64,000 nucleotides of DNA from an uncultured Clostridia bacterium (GTDB taxonomy: Bacteria; Bacillota; Clostridia; TANB77; CAG-508). A program made the translations under genes and the position numbers. The DNA is taken from NCBI GenBank assembly GCA_947623465.1, contig CANQGU010000002.1, forward strand, positions 42,818 through 106,817, given 5' to 3'. Below the pieces are notes generated by a model. The model made no database searches. It saw only the letters and a program-made list of their open reading frames with translations, and was not told the origin of the DNA. Each line of letters begins with the position of its first letter. The stretch's first letter is position 1. Positions 3,001-43,586 of the stretch are shown here, piece by piece.

Positions 3001-6000
3001 TCTTCATTTGATAAGTTTTCTATTTCTAAACATCTTATTTCAACCGCTTCTTCTGGATCTATTGTTATTTTTAAATTTGTTTTTATATTTTCATCCTTTT
3101 TTTCAAAACCAATTTGGTCAGGCATAAATGAAACTAAAGAGCCTTCTTCTCCCATTTTTATAACTTTATTAGAATTAATGTCTTTTACATATAAAAATAT
3201 ACCTTGATTGTAATCGTCTGTTGGTTTAAATCTATTTACATATATATTTCCACATTTACTAAATCCTTGTGACTTCTGGTTTATACCTATTGTGTATATT
3301 CCATTTGATATTACATTTGACCTAATTAATCTTTCATCAATTTTTTTGTAACTTACAACTGAATAATTTTCATAATCTTTGTATTTTCCTTTTTCTGGTT
3401 TTTCTTTTTCCTCTTTTGTTACAATAAATGTTTCTGGCATCCTTTCTTGCAATAATATTTCTACTGCTTTTGCTTCAGGGTTTTTAATAAAACGAGTCTG
3501 AAATATATTATTGTTTATTAAGTTATTTATAGAAAGCAAAATCAAAGCTTGATGGTGTGCCATATAGGTTTTAACTGCATTTGAAGTTTCATTTGAGCGT
3601 AGTCTTTGGTATGAAAAATCCAAGCTTTCATAAAAACCATATTTATTAAACATACCATATTTTTCTAGGTTTTTTAGATTTTTTACAACCTCTTTAGGCT
3701 TATCTGTAATAGCAAGTACACTTGCATAACTTGAAATTACAATTTCATCTGCTAAGCCTCGCTTCAATCCAAGCCATGGTATTCCAAATGCTTTATATTG
3801 GTAATTTGAGTGTAAATCTTTAACATTAAATGCTGATTCTGAAATTCCCCATGGAGTACCCAAAAATTTTGCATATTCTATTTGACTCATAATTGCAAAT
3901 CTAATAGATTCATCTATTAAGCTTCCTTTATATCTTGGAATATTTATATTTGGCATTAAATATTCAAATGCCGTTCCAGACCATGAAATCAAACCTTTTT
4001 TATTATTTAAAATTGTAAGTGTTCTACTTAAAGCATTCCAATGTTTTACATCAACATCTCTTTTTATAATTGCAATTAAACTTGCTTGCCTTGCTTCTGA
4101 TGCTAACAAATCATAATATGAATCTGTTAATTTATTTTCTTCAATATTAAATCCTATAGAAAATAGTCGGTGTTCTTTACTATATAATTTTGAAAAATCA
4201 GTATTTTCTATCATAGAAGTTATTTCATTAATTGTATCTGCTAAATCCTCCCTATTTTGCTCTTCTAAAAACATTTTTGTTACATATAAATACCCCACAA
4301 AATTTCCGCTATCTACTGTTGAAATATATCTTGGATTTAGTGGTTTCATAGTTTTTATATTGTACCAATTATATAAATGTCCATTCCATTTATCTAACTT
4401 CATTATTGTATTTATAATATTTTTTAAAATGTTTATTCCGCTCTTCTTTTTCAATGTAATTTAAATCAATTCCTGCTTGAATACTAAGTAAAGATAACCC
4501 AATATTTGTAGATGATGTTCTATCTACATATTTATATTTTCTATCTTCTTGGTAATTATCTGGAATTAAATAATTATTTTCTTTATTTATATTATCATAG
4601 AAAAATTCAAATGTTCTTCTTCCTATTTCTTTAACATAGCTAATTTCTTCTGTATTTAATACTGATTTTGCTTGTTTTTCTTCAATTTCTTTACTAATAT
4701 AACACATTATACTTGGTGCAATTACCCAAAGTGCTCCTAAGAAAATACCTAAAATACTTCTATTTAAAATAAAATAAATTATTGTAATTACACCAAATAA
4801 AATATTAAATACCATTGCTTTATTGTAGCTTAATAAATCACCTTTGGAATTTTTCTCTGCTTCTTCTGATGTCATCCATTCAAGCATGTGCTTTTTTGTA
4901 AATATTGTTCTATACAATGTTTTACAAATTGCTTTTAAACTAGTCCATGCTTTATATGGAATAACTGCTATTGTTAAAAATCCTCTACATATTGCTGCAA
5001 GTTTTCCATCTATTTTTGGGGTAAAATTATTTTGTTTTTGTTCTCCTTCTCTTTTAAAAATTATTGAATTTATAATTTCTAAAATATATGGCAAAACAGT
5101 TATAACAGCCAAAAGCGTAATAGGAAAAGTTACATTTATATTAAATATTTTTCCAACTACTAAAAAATAGATTCCGGAAACTATAGTCGCTATCTCAAAT
5201 AAGCTTCTTCTTAAATTATCAAAAATTTTATATTTAGAAAGTAAATTTAATTTTTTACTTTTAAGCCACCTAATTATTTGCCAGTCTCCTCTAATCCACC
5301 TAGAAAGCCTAGACATAAAGCTTGTGTATTTTGTTGGATACCCATCCATTATTAAAATATCTGATGCTAAACCACATCTTAAATAACTTCCCTCTAATAA
5401 ATCATGGCTTAAAACTGTATTTTCAGGAATTTCGTTTTTTAATATTTTTGTATATAATTTTAAATCAAATATTCCCTTACCTGTAAAAATTCCTTCTCCA
5501 AAATTATCTTGGTATATATCTGAAATAGCATTTGAATAACTATCTACTCCGCCACTTCCTGCAAATATTTTTGTAAATAATGATTTATAAGAAATATCTA
5601 AATTGATTCCTACTCTTGGCTGAATCAAACCATATCCATTTACTACTTTATTTTCTTCTACCTCTGGTTTATTTAAAATGTGAGCCATACTTCCTACCAA
5701 TTCAAAAGCTGAATTTAAACTCAAATCTGTGTCTGCATCTAATGTAATTATATATTTAATATTTGGCAACCTACTTTTAAAATTGTTTATTGTATTTATA
5801 TTAAATTTTCTTTGTTCTTCTGCATCATCCATATTTCCTTGTAGAAATTCTGTAAAATCAAGAATTGCTCCTCTTTTTCTTTCCCAACCTAGGTATGAAC
5901 CTTCACTTTTATTATACATACGCTTTCTATATATAAAGTGAAATATAGGAAACTTTTGATTTGGATATTTTTTATTTAATTTTTCCGTTTCTTCTAATCC

Positions 6001-12073: not shown

Positions 12074-13231
12074 TTATCCAAAGAATCCTTTTTTCTTTAC
12101 AGGTGGTTGTTCGTTCATAGTTTTTGCAAGAGCAATAAACAAATCTCTTTGCTCTTTTGTTAATCTTTTTGGTGTTTGAACTACGATTTTAAATATAAAA
12201 TTACCTCTAGAGCTTGAATTTATACTGCTAAATCCTTTACCTCTAATTGTAAATTCTGTACCTGTTTGTGTTCCTTCTGGAATTTTATATTTTTCTTTTG
12301 TTCCATCTACCATTGGAATTTCAAGGTCTGTACCTAATGCCGCTTGAGTCATTGTAATTGGTATATTACAATAAACATTATTTCCTTCTCTTGTATAAAT
12401 AGAGCTTTTTCTTACTCTAACTGTTATGTATAAATCTCCTGAAGGTCCTCCTTTTATTCCCGGATTTCCTTCTCCTTTAAGTACTACTGTTTGATTATTG
12501 TTTATTCCTGCTGGAATTTTTACTTTTACCTTTGGTGTTTTTCTAACTGTTCCTTTTCCATGACAATTTTCACATGGTTCTTTAATTATTTCTCCTGTTC
12601 CACGACATTCATTACATGTTCTTGTTGTTTGTACTCTACCTAGTATTGTGTTTTGGAAAGTTGTAACTTGCCCTGTTCCATTGCATGTTGGACATTTAAC
12701 AGGTGAAGTTCCTGCTTTAGCACCTGTTCCATGACAAATACCACATGTTTCTTGCCTTGTAATTGTTATTTCTTTTTCTACTCCTAAAAATGATTCTTCA
12801 AAAGAAATATCTATATTTAAATTTAAATCTTCACCTTTACGAGGTCCATTGTTTCTTCTTGAACTTGCTCTTTGACCTCCAAATCCACCACCAAAAAAGC
12901 TTGAAAATATATCTCCTAAATCTCCAAAATCCCCAAAGTCTGATGAAGTATATTGGTAGTAACCATTTCCACCAAATGGTCCTCCTCCAAATCCTGCCCC
13001 ACTTGGGTCTGCTGTTCCAAATTGGTCATACATTCTTCTTTTTTGAGGGTCAGACAATGTTTCATATGCTTCATTTACTTCTTTAAATTTAGCTTCTGCT
13101 TCTTTTTTATTATCTGGATTAGCATCAGGGTGGTATTTTTTCGCAAGTTTACGATATGCTTTTTTTAGCTCATCATCTGTTGCATTTTTATTTACTCCTA
13201 ATACCTCGTAATAATCTTTTTTATTTGGCAT
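12074..13231 (-). CDS. dnaJ: Molecular chaperone DnaJ
   Basis: J-domain HPD motif (KKYHPD), G/F-rich region and four CxxCxGxG zinc-finger repeats. Confidence 0.95.
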
Positions 13232-34855: not shown

Positions 34856-34931
34856 GGTCGTTTAGCTCAGCTGGGAGAGCATCTGCCTTACAAGCAGGGG
34901 GTCATAGGTTCGAGCCCTATAACGACCACCA
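34856..34931 (+). tRNA. tRNA-Val (anticodon TAC)
   Basis: Cloverleaf with anticodon loop CTTACAA; near-identical to Bacillus tRNA-Val(UAC); 3' CCA encoded. Confidence 0.9.
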
Positions 34932-34940
34932 TATGTTTTT

Positions 34941-35017
34941 GGCCTGGTAGTTCAGTTGGTTAGAATGCCGCCCTGTCACGGCGGAGGTCGACGGTTCGAG
35001 CCCGTTCCAGGTCGCCA
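34941..35017 (+). tRNA. tRNA-Asp (anticodon GTC)
   Basis: Anticodon loop CTGTCAC; acceptor stem pairs; CCA encoded. Confidence 0.9.
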
Positions 35018-35037
35018 TTTTTTTATATACAAAATTT

Positions 35038-35113
<76 letters not shown>

Positions 35114-35123
35114 GAATTTTTAT

Positions 35124-35201
35124 GGTGGATGTAGCGCAGTTGGTTAGAGCGCCAGTTTGTGGCACTGGAGGTCGTGAGTTCGAGTCTCATCTTCCACCCC
35201 A
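35124..35201 (+). tRNA. tRNA-His (anticodon GTG) with extra 5' G(-1)
   Basis: Anticodon loop TTGTGGC; G-1 opposite discriminator C; CCA encoded. Confidence 0.8.
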
Positions 35202-35231
35202 TTTAATTTAACCAACTATTTAATTTTATAT

Positions 35232-35306
35232 TGGACTGTAGCCAAGCGGTAAGGCACCAGACTTTGACTCTGGCATGCGCTAGTTCGAATCTAGCCAGTC
35301 CAGCCA
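35232..35306 (+). tRNA. tRNA-Gln (anticodon TTG)
   Basis: Anticodon loop CTTTGAC; close to Bacillus tRNA-Gln(UUG); CCA encoded. Confidence 0.9.
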
Positions 35307-37165: not shown

Positions 37166-37927
37166 ATGTTAATAATATGTAGCAAATGTGGTAAAGAATA
37201 TTCAAACCAAGCAAAAAGTTGTCCTCATTGTGGAACTATAACATCTCAAAATAGATATATTTCAAACAATAATAATTATCAAGATAAAATGCATGCAAAT
37301 AATGGTATAAACAAAAGTACAGGTGGTAGTAGTTGTGGTGCTATATTAGCAATTGTTCTATTATTAGGATTATTCTTTATAGGATATAAATTATTTTTTG
37401 GTGCATTAGGAGAACTAGGAATTGAAAAAGATGATATAAAATCATCGCTTGAAGATGCATGGAATCATGATAGTAAGAAAAGTGAAACAAAGTCTTCATA
37501 TGAATATACAAAAACTTATAATATAGGGGATAAAATTACTACTAATAAATTTGAGATAACTGTTACAGATGTAACTGAAAGGTCAAAAGTAGGTACTCAA
37601 ATATTTAATGAATCAGCAAGTGATGGTAATACTTTTTTGTGCATTAGAATTAAAATCAAAAATATATCTAGTGAACCAATAAAAACATTTTCACAACCTA
37701 CTTTTGATTTAATAGATAGCAAAAATGTTACTTACAGCTCAGACATTTCTGCTTCAGCATATTATGCAACAGAAGTAAATACAACCGCTAACGCTCTAAG
37801 TGATCTAAATCCAGATGTATCAGTTACTGATGCTTATGTTTTTGAACTAGGAAAATCACATTATTTTCAAAATACTTTTAATTTAAAAATTAATGCTGAT
37901 AAAACCATATTAGTTAAAATAAAATAA
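37166..37927 (+). CDS. Zinc-ribbon + TM + DUF4352-domain protein
   Basis: N-terminal CxxC...CxxC ribbon (CSKCGKEY...CPHCGT), one TM helix and a DUF4352-like beta-sandwich region (ITVTDVTERSKVGTQ...FLCIRIKIKNIS). Confidence 0.6.
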   Translation: MLIICSKCGKEYSNQAKSCPHCGTITSQNRYISNNNNYQDKMHANNGINKSTGGSSCGAILAIVLLLGLFFIGYKLFFGALGELGIEKDDIKSSLEDAWNHDSKKSETKSSYEYTKTYNIGDKITTNKFEITVTDVTERSKVGTQIFNESASDGNTFLCIRIKIKNISSEPIKTFSQPTFDLIDSKNVTYSSDISASAYYATEVNTTANALSDLNPDVSVTDAYVFELGKSHYFQNTFNLKINADKTILVKIK

Positions 37928-37962
37928 TTATAAAAAATAACAAAAGATAGGAGAGATTTTAT

Positions 37963-38850
37963 ATGAAAAGTCAAAAAGGTGTAACTTTAATTGTACTTCT
38001 TATAATAATAATAGTTATTATGTTATTTGTAGCTTTTTTAATAAATAAATATTTACATATGAAGACTGATAAAATGGAAGCTGAATATGAAGCAAGATTT
38101 CACACTATAACTTTTGATACAGATGGAGGAAAAACAATATCTCCTAAAAAAGTACAAAGTTTTGCTGGTATTTCAAATGTAAATGCAGAAAAAAGCGGAT
38201 ATATATTTGAAGGATGGTTGTTAGATGGACAGCTTATCGATGTCAATAATTCTACTCCATTAACACAAGATGTAATTTTAAAAGCTAAATATAGAAAGAA
38301 AGTAGATAATGATAATAATACTAATAATTTTTCAAGTAGTTATAACAATCAACCTTCAAGCAATCCAAGTAATAATATAAATACTTCTAATAACAATAAA
38401 CCTTCAAACAATAATTCAAATATTCAAGCACAGCCTGAAGACAAAAAGACTTATAATGTTAATGTAAGAAAAACTCAAACAAATAATTGGGGAGATACAA
38501 TGTGTGCATTAACAGTCACAAATTATCAAACAGAATCATATAATTCTGAAGTAGGTAAAGTTGAAGAAGGACAAGAATGGGTAATAGTCAACATGAAATT
38601 CGAAAATATGTCAGACTCTACAATTATAATTGATAAAAGCGATTTTGAAATAGTAGATGGTGCTGGTAAATATGGATATGCCACATGGTACAAACATTTA
38701 AATACAGAACTTGGTACAAAAGAAATAAAAGCAGGTCAAACTGCCACATTTAGTGCAAGATTTGTCTATTATAAAAACAATGAAATGATTTTACGATTTT
38801 ATCATCCTTCAATAGTAACTGAGGTATACACAGATATAAAATTGAGATAA
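37963..38850 (+). CDS. TM-anchored protein with Listeria-Bacteroides (InlB B-type) repeat and C-terminal DUF4352-like domain; paralogue of the preceding gene
   Basis: FDTDGG...GYIFEGW repeat signature; N-rich linker; DUF4352-like C-terminus (EWVIVNMKFENMSDSTIIIDKSDFEIVDG). Confidence 0.6.
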   Translation: MKSQKGVTLIVLLIIIIVIMLFVAFLINKYLHMKTDKMEAEYEARFHTITFDTDGGKTISPKKVQSFAGISNVNAEKSGYIFEGWLLDGQLIDVNNSTPLTQDVILKAKYRKKVDNDNNTNNFSSSYNNQPSSNPSNNINTSNNNKPSNNNSNIQAQPEDKKTYNVNVRKTQTNNWGDTMCALTVTNYQTESYNSEVGKVEEGQEWVIVNMKFENMSDSTIIIDKSDFEIVDGAGKYGYATWYKHLNTELGTKEIKAGQTATFSARFVYYKNNEMILRFYHPSIVTEVYTDIKLR

Positions 38851-38969
38851 GTGGAAAAATTGTAATTACAATATATTACATTTACAACATTTAATTTTTT
38901 AAAGTGACGTTATAAAAAATCATATAGAAACATTGAAAACTCTATGTTTCGGCCAGTTCAGCCAATACA

Positions 38970-39009
38970 AAAATCCTAGAAAGCTTTATATATAAGCTTT
39001 CTAGGATTT
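38970..39009. terminator. Strong hairpin terminator (aatcctagaaagcttt atata taagctttctaggatt)
   Basis: 16-bp perfect inverted repeat, T-rich flank. Confidence 0.6.
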
Positions 39010-39048
39010 CATTTTATATTTTCAAGTATAATATCTAATTAAAAACTA

Positions 39049-39077
39049 TTGACATATAAAAAATATCTTGCTATAAT
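39049..39077 (+). promoter_or_regulatory. Consensus sigma-A promoter TTGACA-17-TATAAT
   Basis: Perfect hexamers with 17-nt spacer, 30 nt upstream of a small leader ORF. Confidence 0.6.
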
Positions 39078-39106
39078 ACTAATATATAAGTGAAAGAGGT
39101 AAAATT

Positions 39107-39163
39107 ATGAAATTAAGAGTATTTTTAAACAAACAATTACATCATCATCGTAGGAGCTTGTAA
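39107..39163 (+). CDS. Putative 18-codon leader peptide MKLRVFLNKQLHHHRRSL (three consecutive His codons followed by CGT-AGG Arg codons)
   Basis: AAGAGG RBS 7 nt upstream. It sits between a consensus promoter and a strong intrinsic terminator that precedes the GNAT/M20 operon. The CGTAGG hexamer recurs twice downstream and could pair with a following CCTACG. Confidence 0.35.
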   Translation: MKLRVFLNKQLHHHRRSL

Positions 39164-39237
39164 CTATTGCAGTAGAAAATGCGTAGGTACAGGCTAAAAG
39201 TGCTGTGCCTACGATAGTTTAAAAATACTTTTTTAAA

Positions 39238-39302
39238 GATATACAAAAAGACTATATGTAGGAAAAATCTATATATAGTCTTTTTTGTATATCTATTTTT
39301 TT
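39238..39302 (+). terminator. Leader terminator/attenuator: 20-bp stem (gatatacaaaaagactatat / atatagtcttttttgtatatc) + T8, ending 38 nt before the GNAT gene RBS
   Basis: Near-perfect inverted repeat followed by a TTTTTTTT run. Confidence 0.6.
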
Positions 39303-39340
39303 ACCTTTTTTGCTTAATTTATTATAGGAGGAAATTATAT

Positions 39341-39922
39341 ATGAAATGGAAAATTAAAATACTGAATAATTTAAATGATTTTAAAAAAGTATATAGGGTG
39401 TTTTCGGAGCCACCTTATAATGAAAAGTATACAGACGAAGAACTAGAAAATATTTTTATAGAGTATCAAGAAAAAGGATATATGTATGGTTCATATATTG
39501 ATGAAAAATGTGTTGGATTAATAGCATTAGAAAGAGGTGCAAAATCTGATCAGCCAGTTAAATTTCAAGATGAAGATGTTATGTATTTAGCAGATATTGC
39601 AGTATTGAATAATTATAGAAGAAAAGGGTTAGGAAATCAACTTATGTTATATGCTGTTATGCAATCAAAATTATTAGGATATAAAAAATTATATATGAGA
39701 ACTCTAAAAAATGGTTCTATGTCTTATGGTATTGCGTTAAGAATAGGATTCAAACAAATTCCGAATACTTTTCAAAGTGTTGAAAGAGAAAGAATAAACG
39801 GAAAAACAGAAACTATGCAAAACATATTTTTAGAAATTGATTTAAAAAATTTAAATAAAGAAGCCTTAAGACAAGGTATTAATATGTTAAATTATAGTAA
39901 AGGTAATGAAATAGGAGGTTAA
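39341..39922 (+). CDS. GNAT family N-acetyltransferase
   Basis: Acetyl-CoA binding motif A (RRKGLGNQLM); RBS AGGAGG. Confidence 0.8.
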   Translation: MKWKIKILNNLNDFKKVYRVFSEPPYNEKYTDEELENIFIEYQEKGYMYGSYIDEKCVGLIALERGAKSDQPVKFQDEDVMYLADIAVLNNYRRKGLGNQLMLYAVMQSKLLGYKKLYMRTLKNGSMSYGIALRIGFKQIPNTFQSVERERINGKTETMQNIFLEIDLKNLNKEALRQGINMLNYSKGNEIGG

Positions 39923-39924
39923 AA

Positions 39925-40950
39925 ATGTTAGATGTTGTAGAAATTTTAAAAAGATTAGTACAATTCAATACTATTAAGGATAAAGAAAATAAAGAAATAT
40001 TAGACTATATAGAAAATGCATTAATTCCGATGGGATTTAAAACAGAAAAAAGAGATAAATTTTTGATAATGTATAATAAGAAAGAAACATCCTTAGGATT
40101 TTTAGGACATACAGATACAGTTGATTTTACTAATGATTGGAAATATAAAAAATTTGATTTAACTAAGATTGAAAATAAAATATATGGATTAGGTATATGT
40201 GATATGAAATCAGGTATTGCAGCAATAATTTCTGCTATATCTCAGATTGATTTTAAAAATCTTAATAAGGGGATGAAATTATATTTTACATATGATGAAG
40301 AAATTGATTTTTCGGGAATTAAAGATGTTATAAATTATGAAAAAAATTTCCCTAGTACAATTATAATAGGAGAGCCTACTAATAATGAAATTATTACAGG
40401 AAGTAAAGGACTAATGGAATATAAAATTATTTTTAAAGGTATAAAAACACACTCTAGTACTCCTGAAAAAGGTAAAAGTGCAATCATGAGCGCAATATCA
40501 TTTATAAATGAATTAAATATTTTTTATGAAGATAAACTAAAAAAAGATTTAAACTTAAACTTTGAAATTCCTTATACTACTATGAATATTGGAAAAATAA
40601 ATGGAGGAAATGCAATTAACTCAGTTCCAGATTCATGTGAATTTTTTGTTGATTTTAGAACTACAGATAAAGAAAAAGAAAAAAGTATTATCAACATATT
40701 ACAAATATTAAAAGAAAAATATAAATGTGAAATAGAGGTATTAAATAAAATACCAGCTTTTATAAATAAAAGAAAAATATCTAATAAAACTTGTAATTTT
40801 ATTACAGAAGCAAGTTTTCTAAAAAATGATAGAATAATTTTAGGAGCAGGGCCTATAACAGCACATGAAGTAAATGAATATATTACAATTGAAAGTTTAT
40901 ACCATTTAGTTGAACAATATAAAGAGTTAATTAAAAAATATTGTTGCTAA
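39925..40950 (+). CDS. M20-family metallopeptidase / deacylase (ArgE/DapE-like)
   Basis: Metal-binding motifs GHTDTV and GLGICDMKSG; translationally coupled to the GNAT gene (2-nt gap). Confidence 0.8.
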   Translation: MLDVVEILKRLVQFNTIKDKENKEILDYIENALIPMGFKTEKRDKFLIMYNKKETSLGFLGHTDTVDFTNDWKYKKFDLTKIENKIYGLGICDMKSGIAAIISAISQIDFKNLNKGMKLYFTYDEEIDFSGIKDVINYEKNFPSTIIIGEPTNNEIITGSKGLMEYKIIFKGIKTHSSTPEKGKSAIMSAISFINELNIFYEDKLKKDLNLNFEIPYTTMNIGKINGGNAINSVPDSCEFFVDFRTTDKEKEKSIINILQILKEKYKCEIEVLNKIPAFINKRKISNKTCNFITEASFLKNDRIILGAGPITAHEVNEYITIESLYHLVEQYKELIKKYCC

Positions 40951-40995: not shown

Positions 40996-41030
40996 AAATA
41001 AAAATCCCATAGTTTAGCTATGAGATTTTT
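40996..41030. terminator. Bidirectional hairpin terminator (aaaaatcccatag ttt agctatgagattttt)
   Basis: Inverted repeat between convergent genes. Confidence 0.5.
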
Positions 41031-41056
41031 ATTTATATTATATTATTATTTGTTTA

Positions 41057-41900
41057 TTAATACTCTTTCTTTTCAAAACCTTCTAAATTTGGTTTTTCTA
41101 TATCTTTGTCAGTTACAGTATTTATATCATATTTGTATCTAACATAATCAAATCCTTCTGGAGTTCCGTTCACTCTCATAAAACATATATAAGCATATCC
41201 CAGTGTCTTTTTCAATAAATTCGCCTCTATCATAAAATTTTAAATAATAACAATCCTTATCATCATATTTCTTTTCTTTAATAAATGTAGTCGGATTTAA
41301 TGCAAATAAAAATCTTTCCTTATTGTTCATTGAACTTGTCTCACTTGAAGTTAGACCACTATACATTGCTAAAGTTTCCATATATATTTTCGTTTTATTC
41401 CATACAAGTATACATTGCTCTGAGTCTCTATTTCCCCACTGAATTAAATATTCTTCTCCCTTTTTGGGCTTTATATTTTGCTTAATAACACCATCTTTTT
41501 CCCAACCTTCTCTGATTCCATCTAAAGTTTCAGAATAAAAATGCAAGTTTGTAAAATCTTTAAACGTATCTGATTCTTTTTTTATTTTGCACAATACATT
41601 ATATTTATATATAACTGTTAGCATATACACAAGTATAATTATAATTCCAATTAATATTAATATTTTTTTATATACTTGCAATTTTTTAATTTTTTCATTA
41701 ACTTTTTTCATGTAGTCCACCTCCTTATCATTAATTACATCATTAGTTTTAATAGTATCTGTCATATCTTTGAATATTTGTGTACAATTTTTGCATTGTT
41801 TTAGATGATTTTCAACAAATTCATTTGTTTCTGTAGATGTTACTTTTTCGATATAATTTGGTAATAAATCTTGAACTATTTTACAATTATCACTCATCAT
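41057..41900 (-). CDS. Anti-sigma factor (N-terminal zf-HC2 zinc finger, single TM, extracytoplasmic C-terminal domain); reading frame broken at ~41167. ORF-track piece 41148-41900 lacks the final ~30 aa.
   Basis: HxxxCxxC zinc-binding motif (ENHLKQCKNCTQ). The ORF ends YESERNSRRI*, and deleting one C gives YESEGTPEGFDYVRYKYDINTVTDKDIEKPNLEGFEKKEY*. Overlaps the upstream ECF sigma gene by 11 nt. Confidence 0.6.
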
Positions 41901-42381
41901 TTTTCATCTCCTTTATTTTTTGTTTTGCTCTATAAAAGTTAACTCTTGTCCAAATTTCGCTTTTGCCAATAACATCACCTATTTCTTTAAATGTCATATT
42001 TCCATATAATTTCATATAAAATATTTTTTGTATGTTTTCATCTAATTTTGTAATTTTTTTATACAACATCTGTATATCTTCTTTATTTAGTAATTTTTCT
42101 TCAAAATCGTGTTGAGTATATATTTCTATTGAATTAACATCAATAAAATTTATTTTTTTATTTTTTTTAAGTTCATTAAACCATAAATTTTTGGCAATTT
42201 CACATAACCACACAGACAACTTGCAATTACCTTTAAAGTCATCAATGTGTAGTATGGCTTTATAAAATGTTTCTTGAGTTAAATCTTCTGCTATCTCCGC
42301 ATTATGTGTTAAACAAATTAAAAACTTATATATAAGCATAAAATTTTCTTTATATATTTTTTCCAAATTTCCATTGTCCAT
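41890..42381 (-). CDS. ECF-type RNA polymerase sigma factor (sigma-70 regions 2 and 4)
   Basis: Region 2 (LTQETFYKAILHIDDF...SVWLCEIAKNLWFNE) and region 4 HTH (MTFKEIGDVIGKSEIWTRVNFYRAKQKIKE). Confidence 0.8.
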   Translation of the reverse strand: MDNGNLEKIYKENFMLIYKFLICLTHNAEIAEDLTQETFYKAILHIDDFKGNCKLSVWLCEIAKNLWFNELKKNKKINFIDVNSIEIYTQHDFEEKLLNKEDIQMLYKKITKLDENIQKIFYMKLYGNMTFKEIGDVIGKSEIWTRVNFYRAKQKIKEMKNDE

Positions 42382-42503
42382 CTTTTCTTCCTTTCTACTT
42401 ATATGACAATTTATTTCTTATTTCGTTACATTTTTTATATATTTTTTTACATTATCGACTTTTAAAATTTTATATATAAGTTATATTTAACATCATTATA
42501 TCT

Positions 42504-43586
42504 TTAAAGTTCTACATAAAACTCAATAAACTCTCCCTCATTTTCAACCCAAATTTTTCCACCATGCAAATTAATAATTTCCTTTGTAATTGCTAATCCC
42601 AATCCTGTTCCACCAGTACTACTTGTTCTTGATTCATCAGCTCTATAAAATTTTTCAAAAATTTTTTCTAATTTATATTCTGGAATTTTATCTCCCTTAT
42701 TTTTAAATACCATATTTATCTTGTCTTCGTTTTTAGTTACATCTATTTCAATAGTTGTATTTTCATAACTATAATTAATTGCATTTTTTATAAGATTTCC
42801 AAAGGCTCTAGCAAGCTTATCCCCATCTCCTTGAAAATAGACATGTTCCGGTTTATTTAAAACATATTTTAAATCTCTTGCTTGAAGCATTGGGTAAAAC
42901 TCATCTATTAATTGGTCTAGTAAAATTGATAAATCTATTTTATTTTTTGTAATTGGTGTTTCATGTAAATCATATCTTGTTATATCAAAAAATTGATTTG
43001 TTAGTTCTTCTAACCTTAATGATTTATCTAATGCAATTTTTATATATTTTTCTTGCATTGGTTTTGAAATCTCTTTTTCATCATTTAATAAACTTAAATA
43101 TCCTATAACAGATGTAAGTGGAGTTTTTAAGTCATGAGCCATATACATTATTAAATCATTTTTCTTCTCTGTTTCTTCTTTTGCTTTATTTTTATTTGTT
43201 ATTAAATTAATTCTTATGTTGTTTAATCTATTTTCTAGTATAAGCAAATCACTTGAAAGTTTTATATCTTTTTCAGGTTCTTTTAAAATACTATCCATTG
43301 CAGATATTACTTTTACCATATTATTGTTTGAATTTCTAATAACTATATAAGTGATAATTATAAAGATTATTAAATGCACAATTTCCATTAATAACATTTT
43401 ATTTGCCATACACCAAAAATAAAAACTTCTATTAAAGCTAGATATAGCTTTTGCTATTTGATCATTGTAAATACCATCAACAATAATTTTAAGTATAATA
43501 ATTGCAAGTATAGTATATAGAATTATTTTTAAAATACATTTTATTGCTATACTATTTTTTAATTTTGAAAATTCTTTACTATCCAA
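42504..43586 (-). CDS. Sensor histidine kinase (2 TM, HisKA + HATPase_c)
   Basis: H-box MAHDLKTPLTS; N, G1, G2 boxes (GGTGLGLAI). Confidence 0.85.
   Translation of the reverse strand: MDSKEFSKLKNSIAIKCILKIILYTILAIIILKIIVDGIYNDQIAKAISSFNRSFYFWCMANKMLLMEIVHLIIFIIITYIVIRNSNNNMVKVISAMDSILKEPEKDIKLSSDLLILENRLNNIRINLITNKNKAKEETEKKNDLIMYMAHDLKTPLTSVIGYLSLLNDEKEISKPMQEKYIKIALDKSLRLEELTNQFFDITRYDLHETPITKNKIDLSILLDQLIDEFYPMLQARDLKYVLNKPEHVYFQGDGDKLARAFGNLIKNAINYSYENTTIEIDVTKNEDKINMVFKNKGDKIPEYKLEKIFEKFYRADESRTSSTGGTGLGLAITKEIINLHGGKIWVENEGEFIEFYVEL

Follow-up and report, generated by a model that had tools for sequence, protein, structure and literature searches.

The leader and the genes it precedes

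The window analyzed here is a stretch of 64,000 nucleotides from an uncultured Clostridia bacterium (contig CANQGU010000002.1, positions 42,818 to 106,817), in which a short leader precedes a two-gene operon encoding a GNAT acetyltransferase and an M20 deacylase (Table 1). The leader is composed of a promoter, a short upstream open reading frame (uORF) with three consecutive His codons, a set of RNA segments that can pair in more than one way, and an intrinsic terminator located just before the Shine-Dalgarno (SD) sequence of the GNAT gene. Judged from its sequence and that of its relatives, the leader is, with a probability of about 0.8, a ribosome-mediated, His-sensing transcription attenuator that reports charged tRNA-His and controls GNAT and M20. 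The arrangement goes far beyond chance, as the fold of the leader has a z-score of -10.3 against shuffled sequences and the whole recurs at 35 further loci.

A preliminary description of this DNA, made from the letters alone, had listed several of these elements. The promoter, which outscores every other site in the surrounding 6 kb and from which transcription probably starts near 39084, lies where that description placed it, as does the 18-codon uORF with its ribosome-binding site, its three His codons, and the CGT-AGG that follows. The terminator, given there as a 20-bp stem followed by T8, is indeed strong and precedes the ribosome-binding site of the GNAT gene, but its stem is longer and bulged, its tail is A + U7, and it consists of two tiers. 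The window was also scanned for a second copy of the leader, and none was found.

Table 1. Coordinates, in the window, of the leader elements and of the operon genes.
Feature	Position	Strand	Description
Sigma-70 promoter	39049..39077	+	TTGACA 39049-54, 17-nt spacer, TG-extended TATAAT 39072-77; score 12/12
Leader-ORF SD AAAGAGG	39093..39099	+	7 nt before the ATG; read from the sequence
Leader peptide ORF MKLRVFLNKQLHHHRRSL	39107..39163	+	ATG 39107, 18 codons, TAA 39161-63
Three His codons (CAT CAT CAT)	39140..39148	+	Proposed sensor; near-invariant in relatives
Arg codons	CGT 39149-51, AGG 39152-54	+	Directly after the His run; rare codons
Segment A	39116..39130	+	uORF codons 4-8; pairs with D as the base of the rod; in the minimum free energy (MFE) fold
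Segment a' AUCGUAGG	39147..39154	+	End of His14 codon plus Arg15 and Arg16 codons; pairs with c (CCUACGAU)
Segment a AGCUUGUAACUAU	39155..39167	+	Spans the stop codon; pairs with b, keeping b off c
Segment b CGUAGGUACAGGCU	39182..39195	+	5' arm of the b:c hairpin; also partner of a
Segment c CUGUGCCUACGAUAGU	39203..39218	+	Contested; pairs with a', b, or d (antiterminator)
Segment D GUUUAAAAAUACUUU	39217..39231	+	Partner of A
Segment d ACUAUAUGUAGG	39251..39262	+	Top of the terminator 5' arm; c:d antiterminator of 11 bp with one bulge
Segment e			Terminator 3' arm
Two-tier intrinsic terminator	39237..39302	+	26-bp stem with one bulge (39237-39294), then A + U7 (39296-39302)
Core terminator hairpin	39250-39280		12 bp; own U6 at 39281-86
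Lower terminator stem	39237-49 with 39282-94		Followed by U7 39296-39302
GNAT SD AGGAGG	39326-31	+	Within the 39326..39922 feature
GNAT acetyltransferase gene	39341-39922	+	ATG 39341, 193 aa; PF00583 (E = 2e-11)
M20 (ArgE/DapE-like) deacylase gene	39925-40950	+	341 aa; second and last gene of the operon; PF01546 and PF07687

Conservation of the leader and its reading frame

Relatives of the leader were collected by scanning genomes, one for each species, with a degenerate pattern, which yielded 27 loci encoding a GNAT relative, all of them in metagenome-assembled genomes (MAGs) of uncultured gut Clostridia from human, mouse, rabbit, and ruminant samples. A look-up (L035) and a metagenome scan for a pattern of the c and d boxes added eight further loci, giving 36 leaders in total, that of the window and those of 35 other loci. 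The full leader is kept upstream of GNAT-M20 in all 27 genome loci and in the eight further ones. The M20 gene follows the GNAT gene in 27/27 genome loci, and the genes flanking the pair are not syntenic. The GNAT and M20 proteins are 58-85% identical among the loci, and the nucleotides of the leader are better conserved. A promoter of the form TTGAC-N17-TAnAAT is present in 32/36 leaders, and a SD-like sequence is also found in 32/36. Split or truncated GNAT or M20 matches occur in several MAG loci (L016, L019-L022, L024-L027), with 28 residues of the GNAT left in L027.

The uORF is found in 35/36 loci, and so is its start codon, the exception being L014, which has no in-frame start. Among the 31 distinct uORFs, 24 are 18 codons long and seven are 17 codons long, and all insertions and deletions are of 3 nt; the untranslated spacers of the leader, in contrast, differ by 1-3 nt. 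Codons 2-4 and 9-10 are free to vary. The codon of Leu11 is TTA in 25/31 uORFs and otherwise TTG, CTT, CTA, or, once, ATA, so that five of the six changes are synonymous, and the change from TTA to CTT takes two substitutions. The His run is nearly invariant: HHH is encoded by 30/31 distinct uORFs and DHH by one, and its 93 codons comprise 90 CAT, two CAC, and one GAT. CAUCAUCA is the single strongly conserved stretch of the leader for which RNA pairing offers no explanation, and it reads as His codons. Taken together, the SD sequence, the start and stop codons, the maintained frame, and the synonymous changes support conservation of the uORF as a reading frame.

Mutually exclusive RNA helices

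The hexamer CGTAGG occurs in the uORF (39149-54) and again at 39182-87, and the second copy forms an 11-bp hairpin with CCTACG at 39208-13. The alternative pairing of these boxes, already pointed out in the preliminary description, extends to the relatives: the helices can be formed in 27 leaders, with compensatory changes in some. Five UAG-containing boxes are found in the leader. Three GUAGG boxes are possible partners of a single CCUAC box, and b has a choice between a and c. The contested box c (CCUACGAUAGU), in which CCTACGATAGTT is near-invariant, has three candidate partners, namely a' (AUCGUAGG), b (CGUAGGUACAG), and d (ACUAUAUGUAGG).

Pairs were counted in a MAFFT alignment of 27 leaders, fitted to no structure. 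The A:D helix is paired in 94.2% of the cells, with three pairs changed on both sides, and has an energy of -10.4 kcal/mol. The a':c helix is 96.8% paired (-8.1 kcal/mol) and shows a compensatory C-G to U-A change in L009 and L015, while the a:b helix is 90.5% paired, contains one conserved A.G mismatch, and has an energy of -11.2 kcal/mol, or -16.8 kcal/mol together with an adjacent mini-hairpin. The b:c hairpin, at -18.2 kcal/mol, is paired in 96.6% of the cells and includes four compensatory pairs, a number reached by 0/500 shuffles. In the c:d helix, 99.7% of the cells are paired (-8.2 kcal/mol), and L004 carries a compensatory C-G to U-A change, CCUAC becoming CCUAU and GUAGG becoming AUAGG. 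The terminator is paired in 88% of the cells, seven of its pairs are compensatory with both sides changed, and its energy is -28.8 kcal/mol in full and -13.8 kcal/mol for the core. When a partner is slid by 1-3 columns, pairing falls to 13-65% for every helix.

In about 18/27 loci, the terminator is followed by UUUUAYCUUUUUU, an element that is semi-conserved (39296-39312 in the window). It is complementary to the SD region of the uORF, AAAGAGGUAAAA (39093-39104), with which it is paired in the MFE fold. The element could serve as a second U tract or as a mask of the SD sequence in the read-through RNA.

Ribosome position and the proposed switch

The effect of a translating ribosome was modeled by making nucleotides P-12 to P+15 unpairable, ending the RNA just before the 3' arm of the terminator, and forcing the c:d helix. 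In the window leader, forcing c:d costs 0.0 and 0.1 kcal/mol with His12 and His13 in the A site, respectively, 10-15 kcal/mol with His14, Arg15, Arg16, or the stop codon there, and 6.6 kcal/mol without a ribosome. The median over 32 leaders is 0 kcal/mol at the positions through the second His codon and rises to 4.3-8.4 kcal/mol at the third His codon and at the Arg, Arg, Ser, Leu, and stop codons after it. Segment a' is masked only once His12 is in the A site, a ribosome further upstream leaving a' free to take c first, and the first two His codons are the sole A-site positions that mask a' yet spare a.

These positions suggest a switch that works on the principle of the trp and his attenuators but has an additional layer. 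Its elements and pairings, the conserved frame, and the connection to histidine genes are established by sequence and comparison; folding order and ribosome stalling are inferred. In a leader without a ribosome, a:b, a':c, and A:D would stack as a rod that keeps hold of c, and the terminator would form and end transcription; the MFE fold of the full leader without a ribosome consists of this rod and the terminator. When His-tRNA is ample, the ribosome would reach the third His codon and continue up to the UAA, covering a; b would then be free to form the strong b:c hairpin with c, and the terminator would form again. Likewise, a ribosome that has advanced to the Arg codons or the stop codon is predicted to cover a, release b, and lock c in b:c. 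When His-tRNA is scarce, the ribosome would halt at the point where one of the first two His codons occupies its A site, covering a' and not a. The a:b helix would persist, c would be left with no upstream partner, and it would pair with d once d has been made. The c:d helix would block nucleation of the core terminator, and RNA polymerase would read into GNAT-M20.

Several observations weigh against this interpretation. Folding of alternative structures had been proposed in the preliminary description as a check, and its outcome is divided: the truncated folds form c:d at practically no cost when the A site is at His12 or His13, but equilibrium folding of the full leader under the ribosome masks never yields the antiterminator, and the full terminator (-28.8 kcal/mol) always beats it (-8.2 kcal/mol). 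The model therefore depends on co-transcriptional kinetics, and a terminator that wins at equilibrium is as expected for a kinetic switch. The lower stem of the terminator is not sequestered by c:d and might still terminate transcription at the second of the two U tracts. With the ribosome stalled, the combination of a:b and c:d has the same energy as b:c and is not favored over it. In many leaders the c:d penalty without a ribosome is small or nil, and default termination therefore rests on a':c forming first, while L010 and L016 show no energetic switch. Uncoupling of transcription and translation is reported in at least one Firmicute, and the attenuator would need a polymerase pause, none of which was identified in the leader. 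The a:b helix shows no double changes among the 27 leaders, covariation being thin because the leader is so conserved. L014 (2752-3003) retains the RNA boxes, with a degenerate SD sequence and neither an in-frame start codon nor a consensus promoter; together with the loci in which GNAT or M20 is split, it may represent an assembly frameshift or a decaying copy.

Histidine genes next to relatives of the leader and operon

The sensing of histidine, as proposed in the preliminary description, is supported by the conserved frame and the alternative helices in 27 leaders, and also by a homologous HHH leader that precedes histidine genes. L044, as well as L028-L030 and L034, encode GNAT proteins 41-45% identical to that of the window. 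In L044 (4301-10546), a tRNA-His gene is followed by the leader and then by hisZ-hisG-hisS-hisIE-M15, after which a separate promoter drives a CntK-type (histidine-racemase-like) gene and the GNAT gene. The leader of L044, which was found with a profile of the window family (nhmmer, 23.9 bits, E = 3e-6), encodes MEKKLKVINIELHHHYRSTCIA (…ELHHHYRS…) and shares with that of the window TTACATCATCAT.ATAGGAGC, ..TAGGTACGAG.., ..GTGCCTACAATGATG.., GCTATGTAGG, and the terminator. L034 (968-8779) contains the hisIE-M15-CntK-like-GNAT part of this cluster, followed by a second full-length HisRS and an S66 (MccF-family) peptidase. A HisRS fragment is also present in L034, and only the first three steps of histidine synthesis are encoded in the L044 and L034 clusters.

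In L031 and L032, the GNAT (36% identical) is accompanied by an M20 orthologue (46% identical) located directly before HisRS. Two tRNA-His genes lie immediately upstream in L031 on the minus strand (2584-2660 and 2765-2841). The GNAT gene of L031 has its own promoter, and it is followed by a terminator, a new promoter, the uORF MKKVVLMHVHHH (3693-3731), and then M20-HisRS. Downstream of this uORF, alternative hairpins and a UGUAGGU/ACCUACA terminator are found (3600-3868 in L031, and also in L032). The MKKVVLMHVHHH leader is not homologous to that of the window and, from its sequence, looks like an independent HHH/His leader for the M20 orthologue and hisS. In sum, orthologues of GNAT-M20 adjoin hisS, tRNA-His, hisZ/G/IE, and a His-racemase-like gene. 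A gene for RelA/SpoT, a stringent-response protein, is next to the GNAT gene in L033.

Sibling leaders with other sensor codons

A leader of the same design was found by the metagenome scan in L038 (3711-3975, minus strand), where the uORF MSLIIIANCCCM contains three Cys codons and precedes a cysteine synthase gene of the CysK/CysM family. Its rod, its c and d boxes, the sequences CCUACAAUAGUU and AACUAUGUGUAGG, and the layout of its terminator are the same as in the window. L045 (around 790-1000), whose CysK is 86% identical, carries the uORF MNLVIVTNCCCM, also with three Cys codons, and covarying rod pairs. The Cys leader is not present at three more distant CysK loci (L046-L048), which limits it to a narrow clade. 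A match between the sensor codons and the function of the downstream gene is the hallmark of amino-acid attenuators.

The screen for other uORFs with triplet codon runs and a terminator gave mostly noise. A candidate uORF at position 13057 of the window was rejected, as it lies inside a gene on the opposite strand.

The GNAT and M20 proteins

Annotation of the two enzymes is generic. The GNAT has no named NCBIfam or PDB relative above the cutoff, and its sole PDB sequence match is the uncharacterized YlbP (E = 0.002). The family is small, comprising 233 representatives at 50% clustering, seven of which are below 1e-30. For the M20 protein, the best NCBIfam models are those of acetylornithine deacetylase, and the PDB sequence search gives generic ArgE/DapE matches. 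It does not reach the cutoffs of the ArgE/DapE equivalogs, with, for ArgE, 207 against 297.7 bits for TIGR01892 and 194 against 460 bits for PRK05111.

Some of the distant GNAT homologues (P0136, P0166, P0190, P0209) are fusions of about 450 aa. The N-terminal part of these fusions, about 290 aa long, has no Pfam match and carries no functional clue.

Comparison with known attenuators

Attenuation by a leader peptide had been considered unusual in Firmicutes in the preliminary description, which is overstated, since His leader-peptide attenuators have already been predicted in this phylum. A His leader was predicted for hisS/hisZ paralogues in bacilli of the Bacillus cereus group (Naville & Gautheret, 2010; PMC2965389), and attenuators with 3-5 His codons were predicted in front of the his operons of the B. 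cereus group, of Peptostreptococcaceae/Lutispora, and of Erysipelotrichales (Ashniev et al., 2022; PMC9413887). The latter are computational predictions, with sequences in Additional file 6 of that work.

Like the window leader, those of Peptostreptococcaceae and Lutispora in the second study (PMC9413887) belong to Clostridia/Firmicutes, encode a leader peptide with consecutive His codons, and present the same order of elements, namely the His codons, a ..TTGTAA stop, a CATAGGTACAA.. hairpin arm, ..TTGTAGCTATGATGG, and the terminator. The similarity is weak: nhmmer with the leader profile gives 12.5 bits for Lutispora and 8.2 bits for Terrisporobacter, colinear over about 150 nt, that is, 8-12 bits as opposed to the 24 bits obtained for L044. 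In the published leaders the His codons pair with the c box, whereas in the window this pairing takes in just the final 2 nt of the His run, and the window leader has the extra A:D helix. The targets also differ, GNAT and M20 in the window and his biosynthesis operons in the published cases, although the leader of L044 does precede his genes. L044, upstream of hisZ-hisG-hisS-hisIE, is intermediate between the two. From these sequence comparisons, the window leader appears to be a member or a close sibling of the already predicted clostridial His attenuator type, and novelty lies in the GNAT-M20 target and not in the mechanism. The B. cereus leaders resemble L031 (M20-hisS) and L044 (hisZ-hisG-hisS) in combining a His-codon leader with a HisRS-family gene in a Firmicute; they come from a different lineage than the window, and they are likened here by description, the text of the paper containing no sequences (PMC2965389).

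The enterobacterial hisL leader (RF00514) shares with the window a tandem-His leader peptide and a mutually exclusive antiterminator and terminator, and it gives the read-through at scarce His-tRNA that is proposed for the window. It has seven His codons, as opposed to three, and the classical hairpin set instead of five or six interacting segments, and it belongs to another phylum and regulates other genes. The RF00514 His_leader covariance model gave no match at the gathering score, nor at E<=10 in 38850-39450.

The His T-box, the usual Firmicute solution for his and hisS, senses uncharged tRNA-His, the signal proposed for the window leader, and likewise chooses between terminator and antiterminator. 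It binds the tRNA directly, whereas in the window a translating ribosome would be the sensor, and the window leader has no specifier loop and no T-box match. Rfam, searched over the whole window at gathering scores and in 38850-39450 at E<=10, returned only tRNAs and noise, which eliminates the T-box, known riboswitches, and the proteobacterial His leader as candidates; the absence of a T-box agrees with the preliminary description. Finally, in the ermC, bmrB-bmrCD, and vmlR leaders, occupancy of a uORF by the ribosome remodels the RNA before a terminator or an SD-sequestering hairpin, as proposed for the window. These leaders differ in being triggered by drug-stalled ribosomes irrespective of the amino acid and in having resistance genes as targets.

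Alternative explanations

This last resemblance leads to the possibility of a translation-stress or antibiotic leader of the erm, cat, bmrCD, or vmlR type, in which a drug-induced stall would switch on a drug-acetylating GNAT in a resistance operon. A uORF combined with a terminator is the usual means of inducing resistance genes in Firmicutes (ermC is a case included in PMC2965389), and the neighborhood of one relative contains the S66 (MccF-family) peptidase and extra HisRS copies. The faint similarity of the GNAT to the Sat4, AAC(6'), and ArsN1 family models amounts to 19-21 bits against cutoffs of 140-380, which does not support membership in any of them. A generic stall sensor would have no need of a near-invariant HHH placed exactly with respect to a' and a, and a homologous leader controls his biosynthesis genes in L044, while the sibling leader before the cysteine synthase has Cys codons. 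A resistance operon of this kind is very unlikely, while a variant in which the operon detoxifies a HisRS-directed antimetabolite and is still read via hungry His codons is conceivable.

Sensing of arginine, alone or together with histidine, had also been part of the preliminary description and is not borne out. Here, a stall at the rare CGU-AGG would switch on arginine synthesis through a GNAT resembling ArgA and a deacetylase resembling ArgE, in keeping with the two rare Arg codons after the His run, with the acetylornithine deacetylase models that score best for M20, and with one source that labels a GNAT homologue "N-acetylglutamate synthase-like". Among the 31 distinct uORFs, however, Arg15 is replaced by Cys or Phe in four and Arg16 by Ile in one, and the conservation of the CGUAGG nucleotides is accounted for by their covarying pairing with CCUACG. 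A modeled ribosome at the Arg codons covers a and favors the terminator state, the antiterminator being disfavored by about 6-7 kcal/mol in the median and by 12-13 kcal/mol in the window. The M20 protein remains below the ArgE cutoff (207 vs. 298 bits), and all informative neighborhoods point to histidine. L033, where the genes are RelA/SpoT, GNAT, YgjV, the uORF MMYSMNIRRRF with a terminator, M20, and NUDIX, provides another argument for arginine, as its M20 gene comes after a uORF containing three Arg codons and after alternative hairpins (3630-3800), which may together be an Arg leader; this M20 belongs, however, to a different subfamily (25-30% identity). An Arg or dual His/Arg attenuator is accordingly very improbable.

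An RNA switch bound by a ligand or a protein (a riboswitch, or a HutP/TRAP-like system at the UAG/GUAGG boxes) with an incidental uORF is the least credible of these proposals, since the very stable fold, the nucleotide conservation exceeding that of the proteins, and the five UAG-containing boxes that speak for it are opposed by the lack of any Rfam family even at E<=10, by a uORF that keeps its SD, start, stop, frame, and synonymous changes, by mutually exclusive pairings that explain the conserved boxes, by the His-codon stretch CAUCAUCA that has no pairing role, and, for a HutP-like system, by its requirement for 4-nt spacers, which the UAG spacing of the leader seems not to fit.

Possible role of the GNAT-M20 pair

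If the leader is a His-sensing attenuator, its position before GNAT and M20 implicates the two genes in histidine supply. Gene neighborhoods suggest that restoring the supply of histidine or of His-tRNA is their most likely role; the M20 enzyme could, for instance, liberate His that is N-acylated or bound in peptides. Alternatively, the pair may detoxify an antimetabolite aimed at HisRS, or may convert D-His to L-His via an N-acetyl intermediate. A literature search for a bacterial pair of N-acetylhistidine acetyltransferase and deacetylase returned only papers on the vertebrate HisAT/NAT16 and on carnosinase.

More tentatively, and at rather less than even odds, GNAT-M20 may constitute an unrecognized branch of the His-starvation regulon in gut Clostridia, and the leader may be a copy of a modular attenuator cassette. 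In the first case, the pair may act in the salvage of histidine (N-acylated, peptide-bound, or in the D-form) or in an MccE/MccF-like detoxification of HisRS antimetabolites. In the second, the CCUAC/GUAGG switch and its terminator may have been reused with His codons before GNAT-M20 and hisZGS-IE and with Cys codons before cysteine synthase. Ribosome-mediated attenuation would then be a recurrent and evolvable form of control in a phylum where T-boxes and riboswitches are believed to do this work, and the His and Cys siblings suggest that such switches can be retargeted by swaps of the sensor codons.

For a small GNAT family and the M20 enzyme with which it forms a conserved pair in the gut Clostridia examined, the leader offers the first hint of a function. 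Few amino-acid leader-peptide attenuators have been predicted in Firmicutes, and the present one, with 36 loci and strong conservation, joins them. It also represents a clean system for asking how attenuators work where the coupling of transcription and translation is thought to be loose.

Genomic surroundings of the operon

A terminator-like site is located 3' of the M20 gene at 40996-41034. The neighbors of the operon in the window (37166-38850 and 41148-43586) are unrelated to GNAT-M20: two DUF4352 proteins are encoded upstream, and an ECF-type sigma factor, a zf-HC2 anti-sigma factor, and a histidine kinase are encoded downstream on the opposite strand. A cluster of five tRNA genes (Val, Asp, Phe, His, Gln) lies at 34856-35306, about 4 kb upstream of the leader, with the tRNA-His gene at 35125-35201; the tRNA-His genes of L031 and L044 directly adjoin the His-regulated clusters.

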